DNA from: Escherichia coli
GTDB lineage: Bacteria; Pseudomonadota; Gammaproteobacteria; Enterobacterales; Enterobacteriaceae
NCBI RefSeq assembly: GCF_041248615.1
Contig: NZ_CP158426.1
Reading direction: 5' to 3' (one strand)
Length of the DNA: 64,000 bases
Below the pieces are notes generated by a model. That model was not told the DNA's origin. It worked only from the letters and a program-made list of their open reading frames with translations, and made no database searches. Below are positions 5,679-6,620 of the stretch, in pieces. How positions within the stretch are numbered: the stretch's first letter is position 1; the number at the start of each line of letters is the position of its first letter. Both the position numbers and the translations under genes were made by a program.

Positions 5679-6620
5679 TCACCCCCTGAATCCTGCCGGG
5701 ATCTGGCTGTAGTCCACGTTGTCGTAACTGGCTTTGAAGTACGGGTCTTCACGTTTTTCTGTGTGCGTGCTGACGGACGGCGATAAGCGCAGGGAAAGCT
5801 CATCCCATTTTTCCCGCAACTTCGACGGGCTGAGCACGTTACGGCACCAGAACGGATCGCGGCTGACGCGGCTGTACATCTCGCAGATTTGTTTGTGAGT
5901 ACGACCATCCTGCACACACATCAGGCGAATTTCGTTTGCCCAGGCTGTCCAGTTAGGTTCTTTGGGACGAACCACCTCGCCGTCACATTCGGCGGCCTGC
6001 TCGTACAGGGCGATGATTTTTTTCCAGAGCCACTGTGCGCAGGTCAAATCATCCTGCGTTCCCCACTGGCGCTTTTTAGGGCTGAATACAACCGCATCAG
6101 GATGGCGAGTTAAAAAATCCTGTTCATCCATCTGCGTGTCCGGTTGCGAAGCGTCCGGACGAGAAGGTTTTTTATCTGATGGATCATGTTTTGATTTTAC
6201 TGACGGATCCCCGCCAGATTCTGACGGGTGAAAACCCGCTTTTTTGCCAGATTTCGACGCATCAAATTTTGACGGGTCAGATTTTGATGCGTCAGATTTT
6301 GACGGGTCAGAATCTGACAGTTGAGAAAATGCCGCTGCCTGAAGCTTCGCAACGTTAAGCTGATAAACATTCGACGCATTGCGGTTACCCTGGCGACGCG
6401 CCTTACGCGTTAACCAGCCTTCTGCTTCCAGCCGTGCGATAGCCGTTCTGACGGTACTCATCCCCGCGCCAATCTGACGGGCAATGGTTTCAATTGATGG
6501 CCAGCACACACCTTCGTCATTACTGAAATCAGCCAGGCGGGCCATAATTGCCACGCTGGATAACTTCATGCCTGATGCAGCGCAACCATCCCATACATAG
6601 CCGGTTAATTTAGTGCTCAT
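5679..6620 (-). CDS. phage replication initiation protein (N-terminal wHTH, internal peptide repeats, DnaT-like C-terminal tail)
   Basis: 313 aa; N-terminal HTH (PSIETIARQIGAGMSTVRTAIARLEAEGWL); C-terminus DYSQIPAGFRG matches the chromosomal DnaT C-terminus [10 protein letters not shown] found in this same window. Confidence 0.7.
   Translation of the reverse strand: MSTKLTGYVWDGCAASGMKLSSVAIMARLADFSNDEGVCWPSIETIARQIGAGMSTVRTAIARLEAEGWLTRKARRQGNRNASNVYQLNVAKLQAAAFSQLSDSDPSKSDASKSDPSKFDASKSGKKAGFHPSESGGDPSVKSKHDPSDKKPSRPDASQPDTQMDEQDFLTRHPDAVVFSPKKRQWGTQDDLTCAQWLWKKIIALYEQAAECDGEVVRPKEPNWTAWANEIRLMCVQDGRTHKQICEMYSRVSRDPFWCRNVLSPSKLREKWDELSLRLSPSVSTHTEKREDPYFKASYDNVDYSQIPAGFRG
6224..6324. repeat. 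about six tandem ~15-bp repeats (AGATTTTGACGGGTC-like) inside the replication gene; candidate ori iterons
   Basis: direct repeats read at 6224-6324 encoding the SDPSKSDASKSDPSKFDASKS peptide repeat; lambda ori lies inside O as iterons (established). Confidence 0.5.

Follow-up and report, generated by a model that had tools for sequence, protein, structure and literature searches.

A DnaT-like terminal peptide on a lambda-O-type prophage initiator and its association with DnaC-type helicase loaders

In phage lambda the C-terminal end of the initiator O holds the phage loader P. The locus described here raises the question of how an initiator of this kind obtains a helicase when its phage appears to encode no loader at all. 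It lies in a stretch of 64,000 nucleotides from Escherichia coli (NCBI RefSeq assembly GCF_041248615.1, contig NZ_CP158426.1), referred to below as the window, and consists of a prophage gene for a replication initiator of 313 residues, which by its sequence is of the lambda-O type (Table 1). The protein ends in ...DNVDYSQIPAGFRG, and its last residues, DYSQIPAGFRG, resemble the C-terminus of the host primosomal protein DnaT, which is encoded in the same 64-kb window. No homologue of lambda P, DnaC or DnaB is found in this window except the host dnaC. The comparisons set out below show a strict association between tails of this kind and DnaC-type loaders. The reading favoured here is that the tail is on balance a docking peptide for such loaders, by means of which a phage devoid of a loader borrows the host DnaB-DnaC; DnaT may do likewise.

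Tail type and loader type

The resemblance to DnaT is confined to a very short segment: BLASTP aligns the initiator with DnaT over the last nine residues only, of which eight are identical (E=0.009 for the pair). The DnaT tail is nearly invariant across the DnaT proteins of Enterobacteriaceae, and a protein homologue search with DnaT listed its close enterobacterial counterparts only. A tblastn search with its 24 residues against 50,697 phage records returned 49 records, in which every annotated match is a replication-initiator gene or dnaT. As the annotated matches fall exclusively in such genes, and as the peptide is kept through synonymous changes, the tail match is not a product of chance, and a DnaT-like C-terminal tail, the central claim of the original prediction, is borne out. 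The common motif, I-P-x-G-F-R-G, stands at the very end of the proteins, and some members of the initiator family share 16 residues with the DnaT tail (NHISEPDTEIPPGFRG). Most of the family harbour tails of the GFR type (DYSQIPAGFRG, SEPDTEIPPGFRG, LPENSGFR[ST], TPEGFRGY); a minority end in HWNSxExWxxxL (W type) or in NTDWIYGIE... (TDWIYG type).

Are these tail types related to the loader that each phage uses? Within 4 kb on either side of the initiator gene, no loader is present in 80/80 IMG/VR loci of the family. These 80 loci are near-identical, good for a loader count but poor for diversity, and the survey was therefore anchored on the loader genes themselves. Upstream of phage DnaC-like loaders in IMG/VR, the preceding reading frame ends in ...IPPGFRG, directly before the stop codon, in 80 of 80 loci. 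Next to loaders of the lambda-P family the upstream frame ends in the HWNxxExWxxxL type in all 79 evaluable loci. The P22 gp12-type DnaB helicases represent a third class, in which the upstream frame has neither tail (79/79) and terminates in ...REGKFADRGIA or ...LIAIREGTL. Not one crossover was observed in the 159 loci anchored on DnaC-like or lambda-P genes: five apparent exceptions were artefacts of open reading frame (ORF) picking.

The same partition is seen within groups of related initiators. One cluster of bodies, defined at 60% identity, comprises 43 DnaC-linked members with a GFRG tail and four P-linked members with a W tail; the closest pair across this divide is 69% identical up to ...KLREKWDELVIRLG and fully divergent from there on. 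At least six unrelated types of N-terminal body carry the GFRG tail. In the initiator family, a Phage_lambda_P gene comes next in all three of the examined members with alternative (W-type or TDWIYG-type) tails, an IstB/DnaC-like gene follows the member whose tail, SEPDTEIPPGFRG, comes closest to that of DnaT, and two other GFR-tail members have no loader next. Lambda O ends in NTDWIYGVDL and is followed by P, whereas the present initiator ends in IPAGFRG and its prophage is without a P gene. Among annotated phages, a GFRG-type tail is followed by a DnaC-like gene in six (POCJ13, Gifsy-1, 666R9, SPN3UB, Klebsiella ST974-OXA48phi18.2 and Aeromonas pAEv1818) and has no loader next to it in five (SfIV, SPN1S, Klebsiella ST11-OXA245phi3.2, HannyBb and Tritos); a P gene follows the GFRG-type initiator in none of these eleven. 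The genus Uetakevirus provides a natural contrast: SPN1S combines a DnaT domain with a GFRG tail and lacks a loader, whereas phiV10 combines a DnaT domain with a W tail and a P gene. A description of a tail-to-loader code, or of a contact between the DnaT tail and DnaC, was not found in the literature consulted, which did not cover Wrobel and Wegrzyn 2002 on lambdoid replication modules; as far as could be found, the comparative result is new.

Two further loci extend the catalogue of tails. Outside Enterobacterales, the DnaT-domain initiator of Aeromonas phage pAEv1818 (locus 1180-2852) ends in ...EKPPGFN, which reads as a diverged form of the GFRG tail, and precedes the DnaC-like loader mentioned above. 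In Rac, the protein YdaU (Rac-SA53 locus 2880-4404) has a DnaT-type domain and a long, different C-terminal extension ending in ...CTDWRDD; the product of the next gene, YdaV, is 153 residues long and resembles lambda-P-family proteins in their C-terminal part.

The DNA that encodes the tail has a second function. In nearly all GFRG loci the terminal codons are AGG GGG, with a rare Arg codon, and these six nucleotides also provide the gene that follows with its Shine-Dalgarno sequence. Host dnaT is analogous: it ends (28196-28201) in AGA GGG, followed by TAA CG and the ATG of dnaC at 28207, and again a rare Arg codon doubles as part of a Shine-Dalgarno sequence. The W-tail codons TGG GAG GAT hold GGAGGA, which serves the P gene in the same manner. 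Such overlaps, in genomes as mosaic as those of lambdoid phages, are what would be expected of hitch-hiking, whereby the 3' end of the initiator gene carries the translation-initiation region of its neighbour and tail and loader are exchanged as one block of DNA. As an explanation of the tail pattern this is extremely improbable. Conservation spans 12-17 residues, far past the ribosome-binding site; the peptide persists with codons that are synonymous or destroy the Shine-Dalgarno sequence (CGC GGT in SPN1S, CGC ACA in Klebsiella); GFR tails are kept in at least five loader-less lineages with unrelated genes next; and the 159 anchored loci are free of crossovers. The ribosome-binding site alone was likewise considered and rejected as a sufficient cause of the terminal Arg-Gly, and selection on the tail at the peptide level is supported.

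Candidate partners of the tail

The tail behaves as an independent module. A DnaT-like fold for the initiator's C-terminal domain was considered and rejected: there is no match to Pfam DnaT (PF17948), the BLASTP alignment is limited to the terminal residues, and an hhalign comparison between C-terminal domains of lambda-O type and of DnaT type returns a probability of 0.05%. No DnaT chains occur among the Foldseek matches of the full AlphaFold2 (AF2) model, a search that is dominated by the N-terminal domain, and BLASTP, which retrieves the tail alone, detects nothing like the N-terminal trimerisation and PriB-binding domain of DnaT or its acidic linker. The initiator is thus not a DnaT homologue, the tail being all that the two have in common. 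The term 'primosome-mimicking', applied in the original prediction, does not suit a protein without the DNA-binding domain of DnaT, and the similarity to DnaT proposed there is that of a tail and not of a fold. The absence of fold likeness, named in that prediction as part of what would refute it, does not remove a function for the tail, given the tail's modular behaviour.

In the restart pathway the hand-over from the PriA-PriB-DnaT preprimosome to DnaB-DnaC has been a question for decades. The published accounts state that it is unknown how DnaT recruits DnaB/DnaC, and report no DnaC-DnaT contact (PMC13377028, PMC11087952, PMC4132743); papers of 2014, 2024 and 2026 assign no recruitment role to the DnaT tail. 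Unlike the initiator, for which binding to an origin is predicted, DnaT lacks sequence specificity and works at forks together with PriA and PriB. It could be imagined that the phage tail mimics DnaT to recruit PriA and/or PriB, so that the helicase is loaded via the restart primosome: the tail is common to DnaT and the initiator, and PriA-dependent primosomes are used by some phage and plasmid replicons (review PMC5778457). In the 2026 preprimosome structures, however, PriA is touched by the DnaT C-terminal domain and PriB by the linker (PMC13377028), and the initiator has neither of these, nor the DnaT N-terminal domain. Recruitment of PriA or PriB would offer no reason for the tail to track DnaC-like loaders and never lambda-P or DnaB-type helicases, and phages with a DnaC-like loader of their own would not need PriA. 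This route is very unlikely, and among the three partners named in the original prediction, PriA, PriB and DnaC, it is DnaC alone that the tail-loader association supports.

A different possibility is that the tail serves not recruitment but a function in cis or in self-assembly, by which the initiator or DnaT would bind single-stranded DNA (ssDNA), act cooperatively or oligomerise. Liu et al. (2014) deleted DnaT residues 154-179 and observed an approximately twofold change in ssDNA affinity and a lower cooperativity: the affinity of the fragment 84-153 for dT30 is lower than that of 84-179 by a factor of about two, and its binding is less cooperative. Moreover, DnaT 1-161 forms dimers, not trimers (review PMC5778457). 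A role in cis nonetheless looks distinctly improbable. The same peptide is found on at least two unrelated C-terminal domains, of lambda-O and DnaT type, in addition to the diverse N-terminal bodies noted earlier, and a general DNA-binding or oligomerisation function does not predict a strict exclusion from lambda-P and DnaB-type modules.

The comparative data establish an association and not a contact, and they could accommodate a tail that binds another host replication factor, for instance DnaB directly, DnaG or SSB (the protein that binds single-stranded DNA), with DnaC-type loaders merely tolerating this route. That DnaB touches the DnaT filament directly was proposed by Liu et al. (2014). 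On the other side of the balance, the tail is absent from all 79 initiators beside phage DnaB-type helicases and from the 79 next to lambda-P genes, although phages of the latter type also use host DnaB, and the three classes are most simply told apart by their loader. A partner other than DnaC is accordingly held to be unlikely.

The comparative pattern suggests, instead, a physical contact between tail and DnaC, and a structural model lends weak support to it. A single-chain AF2 fusion was assembled from a W-tail control, a linker, E. coli DnaC, a second linker and DnaT residues 148-179, with an alignment that included natural phage pairs. The last eight residues (QIPPGFRG) reached a predicted local distance difference test (pLDDT) score of 74, with a beta-bridge at the Arg, compared with 33-44 for the linkers and 44-52 for the W-tail control.

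A number of observations weigh against docking on DnaC. The signal of the fusion is modest, a point that also favours another partner, no docking site was located, and monomeric DnaC may not present its true surface. The anchored sets are phylogenetically redundant, the loaders of the DnaC-like set being 81-94% identical. As the tail-coding DNA and the ribosome-binding site of the following gene overlap, tail and loader are physically linked and could be inherited together without interacting. Divergence is greater in the tails of the loader-less members (DYSQIPAGFRG, LPENSGFRT) than in those that stand beside phage DnaC-like genes. In the 2026 cryo-electron microscopy paper it is the N-terminal domain of DnaT that is favoured as recruiter of DnaB/DnaC, and the tail is not discussed (PMC13377028); moreover, the deletion data of Liu et al. 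allow the tail a part in cis. With these points included, docking on DnaC-type loaders is still regarded as the probable function of the tail.

A broader proposal, for which the chances are about even, is that the C-terminus of lambdoid initiators is a swappable 'address peptide' specific for each partner: IPxGFRG for loaders of the DnaC type, and either HWNxxExWxxxL or TDWIYG for those of the lambda-P type. On this view the IPPGFRG of DnaT would supply the missing link through which DnaB-DnaC is captured by the restart primosome, dnaT-dnaC would be a domesticated phage initiator-loader cassette, and SfIV, SfII, SPN1S and the present prophage would plug their tail into host DnaC. The idea of a cassette derives from the likeness of SPN1S gp46 (locus 2970-3785) to DnaT, its C-terminal 94 residues sharing 62.8% identity with the C-terminal domain and tail of E. 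coli DnaT, and from phage initiators with the same tail that lie directly upstream of DnaC-like genes.

The phage data thereby single out one short peptide and one class of partner for the step between DnaT and DnaB/DnaC. If true, the proposal would account for the replication of a large group of temperate phages that encode only one replication protein of their own. A tail type that predicts the loader type would also improve the annotation of genes labelled 'helix-turn-helix domain-containing protein'. The replication modules of Shiga toxin (Stx) phages known as Eru, on whose replication proteins 'no knowledge' was reported, include related HTH_36 proteins. The interest resides in the tail code and its prediction for DnaT; the gene as such is commonplace and abundant.

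The initiator, its putative origin and the proposed mechanism

The identification of the protein as a prophage replication initiator, in agreement with the original prediction, and as one of the lambdoid type is based on four features: a match of the whole protein to PHROG 391 'replication initiation O-like' (1.5e-135), an HTH_36 domain, a C-terminal domain that aligns with lambda O, and a place in the early operon after a cII-like gene. PHROG 277 and 9773, both 'O-like', are matched as well, as are PHROG 2514 'DnaD-like helicase loader' (4e-29) and PHROG 4880 'replisome organizer' (2.8e-12); a Pfam DnaD_N match (E=0.0013, 19.4 bits) falls under the 27-bit cut-off. The Prokaryotic Genome Annotation Pipeline (PGAP) designates the gene 'helix-turn-helix domain-containing protein', and in phage records it bears the name 'replication protein O' or 'primosomal protein I'.

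The AF2 model, built from an alignment of 58 sequences, divides the protein into four parts (Table 1). Residues 1-100 (pLDDT 80-90) display a helix and strand pattern that is characteristic of winged helices, Pfam HTH_36 is matched by residues 23-70 (4.3e-11), and the top Foldseek matches of the full model in the PDB are all MarR-like winged helices that cover this domain only; it is predicted to be a sequence-specific DNA-binding domain. A disordered linker rich in Ser, Asp, Pro and Lys leads to the C-terminal domain, a beta-hairpin followed by six helices (pLDDT >90), which has about 28 invariant positions in the alignment with lambda O, among them W186, G187, D191, W227, N229, R232, N261, S264, P265, K267, L268, R269, K271 and W272. 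The flexible tail completes the protein.

Table 1. Positions in the window of the initiator gene, its parts and neighbouring or related genes
Feature	Position	Strand	Basis or remark
Replication initiator gene	5679-6620	minus	ORF, 313 aa
N-terminal winged-helix putative origin-binding domain, residues 1-100	6321-6620	minus	HTH_36, AF2, Foldseek
Disordered Ser/Asp/Pro/Lys linker, residues 103-161	6138-6314	minus	AF2 pLDDT <50; DNA holds putative origin
Lambda-O-type C-terminal domain, residues 165-280	5781-6128	minus	Alignment with lambda O
Flexible C-terminal tail, residues 283-313	5682-5774	minus	AF2 pLDDT 44-60
Conserved tail core VDYSQIPAGFRG	5682-5717	minus	Tail classes, codon comparison, loader association
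Codons AGG GGG (Arg312, Gly313), also Shine-Dalgarno sequence of next gene	5682-5687	minus	ATG of next gene at 5676
Putative iteron array, 5-6 units spaced 15 bp apart	6212-6327		Repeat search, Tandem Repeats Finder, core count
AT-rich patch, candidate DNA-unwinding element	6160-6199		Lowest GC of the gene, 0.30; directly past the array in sense direction
PerC-family regulator (yfdN), next gene downstream, not a helicase loader	5188-5682	minus	Pfam PerC 7.8e-10, PGAP
DUF4222 gene	6610-6789	minus	Upstream early region; overlaps initiator start by 11 nt
CII/YmfL-like gene	6965-7522	minus	Upstream early region
cro-like gene	7545-7793	minus	Upstream early region
cI-like repressor gene	7929-8615	+	Upstream early region
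Host dnaT	27665-28204	+	NCBIfam DnaT 1.4e-104; tail coded 28151-28201
Host dnaC, proposed tail partner	28207-28944	+	Starts 2 bp past dnaT

The linker-coding DNA contains a repeat array with the characteristics of an origin. Tandem Repeats Finder reports 4.3 copies with a period of 15 and 81% matches at 6248-6311, and a second repeat search finds six copies over the full array; direct repeats of about 15 bp had been predicted, and they are real, although the span given for them (6224-6324) was slightly narrow. As also foreseen, the array codes for SDPSK/SDASK peptide repeats. The units are inverted repeats, each approximately GTCAGAwTyTGAC or TCA(A/G)A(A/T)T(C/T)TGA(C). Four instances of the core TCARAWTYTGA lie in the window, all of them within the array, against 0.33 expected, and none of 100 shuffles reached four.

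An array of the same 15-bp period, with 4-8 copies of TCA(A/G)AATCTGA(C/A) and one further copy 33-48 bp downstream, is present in relatives from Salmonella, Rahnella, Pantoea and Klebsiella, where the encoded linker peptide varies (SDPSK, PSNFD, SESEH) while the DNA repeat stays. In addition, alleles more than 90% identical differ by multiples of five residues, that is 15 bp (313, 303, 323 and 318 aa). As the array is kept across genera while its peptide changes, and as alleles differ in 15-bp steps, the constraint appears to act on the DNA, in other words the repeats would be iterons, and binding of protein to them and origin activity may be inferred. Some alleles, of 287 and 282 residues, have lost nearly the whole array and may be origin-defective prophage copies.

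The arrangement in which repeats and an AT-rich flank are embedded in linker-coding DNA is the same as in the annotated iterons of lambda (NC_001416) and in the P22 origin, and the likeness to lambda that had been put forward stands. Analogously to lambda O, the gene follows cII in the early right operon, and a homologous C-terminal domain precedes a flexible extreme C-terminus. In contrast, the N-terminal domain is of HTH_36 type and not a lambda O N-domain, and the repeats are spaced at 15 bp, compared with approximately 20-24 bp in lambda.

A mechanism can be proposed for the loader-less initiator. The N-terminal winged helix would bind the inverted repeats in the linker-coding DNA of its own gene, and the resulting nucleoprotein complex would open the adjoining AT-rich patch. 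The flexible IPAGFRG tail, extending from the lambda-O-like C-terminal domain, would then dock onto a DnaC-type loader, whereby the initiator would capture host DnaB6-DnaC6 directly and set DnaB at the opened origin. By extension, the tail of DnaT would do the same job at restart forks.

Related systems and prophage context

Several groups of initiators share parts of this organization. Phage initiators with a DnaT domain (SPN1S gp46, phiV10 gp43, epsilon15 and Rac YdaU) are likewise built of an origin-binding domain at the N-terminus, a linker, a C-terminal domain and a tail, but their C-terminal domain is the three-helix type of DnaT, whereas that of the present initiator is of lambda-O type. 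SPN1S resembles the prophage in its GFRG tail and lack of a loader; phiV10 and Rac differ in having non-GFRG tails and a P-type gene. The GFRG tail is also found in Gifsy-1 O, SPN3UB PrpO, POCJ13 gp16 and the Eru types of Stx phages with HTH_36 proteins. These lambdoid initiators, some of which possess both HTH_36 and the lambda-O-type C-terminal body, have a DnaC homologue of their own directly downstream, where the prophage initiator is proposed to rely on the host copy. A more distant parallel is the C-terminal tip of SSB, a short conserved docking peptide that ends a flexible tail and serves many partners. The tail proposed here would likewise be a short terminal docking peptide, but its sequence is unrelated and it is apparently matched to one class of loader.

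E. coli NRZ14408 matches the window with 100% identity, and there the gene belongs to a CPS-53/SfII-like prophage. Of 5426 complete E. coli genomes, 2724, about half, carry the initiator gene, which also occurs in Shigella serotype-converting phages and is 98% identical in SfIV and SfII: it is a common gene, already annotated, with a vague link to DnaT in its annotation. SfIV forms plaques and lysogens (PMC3851460), and its complete genome of 54 genes contains no helicase, loader or primase gene. Downstream of the initiator the prophage encodes PerC, a LexA-like protein, RusA, KilA-N, DUF968 and Q, and its integrase gene adjoins yjjG.

Four minor features of the region may be added. In PGAP and in the ORF list, the PerC-like gene starts at a GTG that overlaps the initiator stop codon; the ATG at 5676, 5 nt past AGGGGG, is the more likely start. 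The DUF4222 gene also occurs up to about 2 kb upstream of homologous initiators in Salmonella, Pantoea and Klebsiella, abutting them in two cases, and its product may be a replication accessory. A gene for a BRCT-domain protein (8598-9488, minus strand) adjoins the cI-like repressor gene and one for a CHAT-domain protein (15879-18011, minus strand) adjoins the integrase gene; both may represent prophage cargo with a role in defence or an accessory role. Lastly, the prophage is interrupted by insertions of IS1 and IS1414 (11045-11742 and 14485-15693) and contains a frameshifted ORF (10264-10574): in this strain it is probably decaying.

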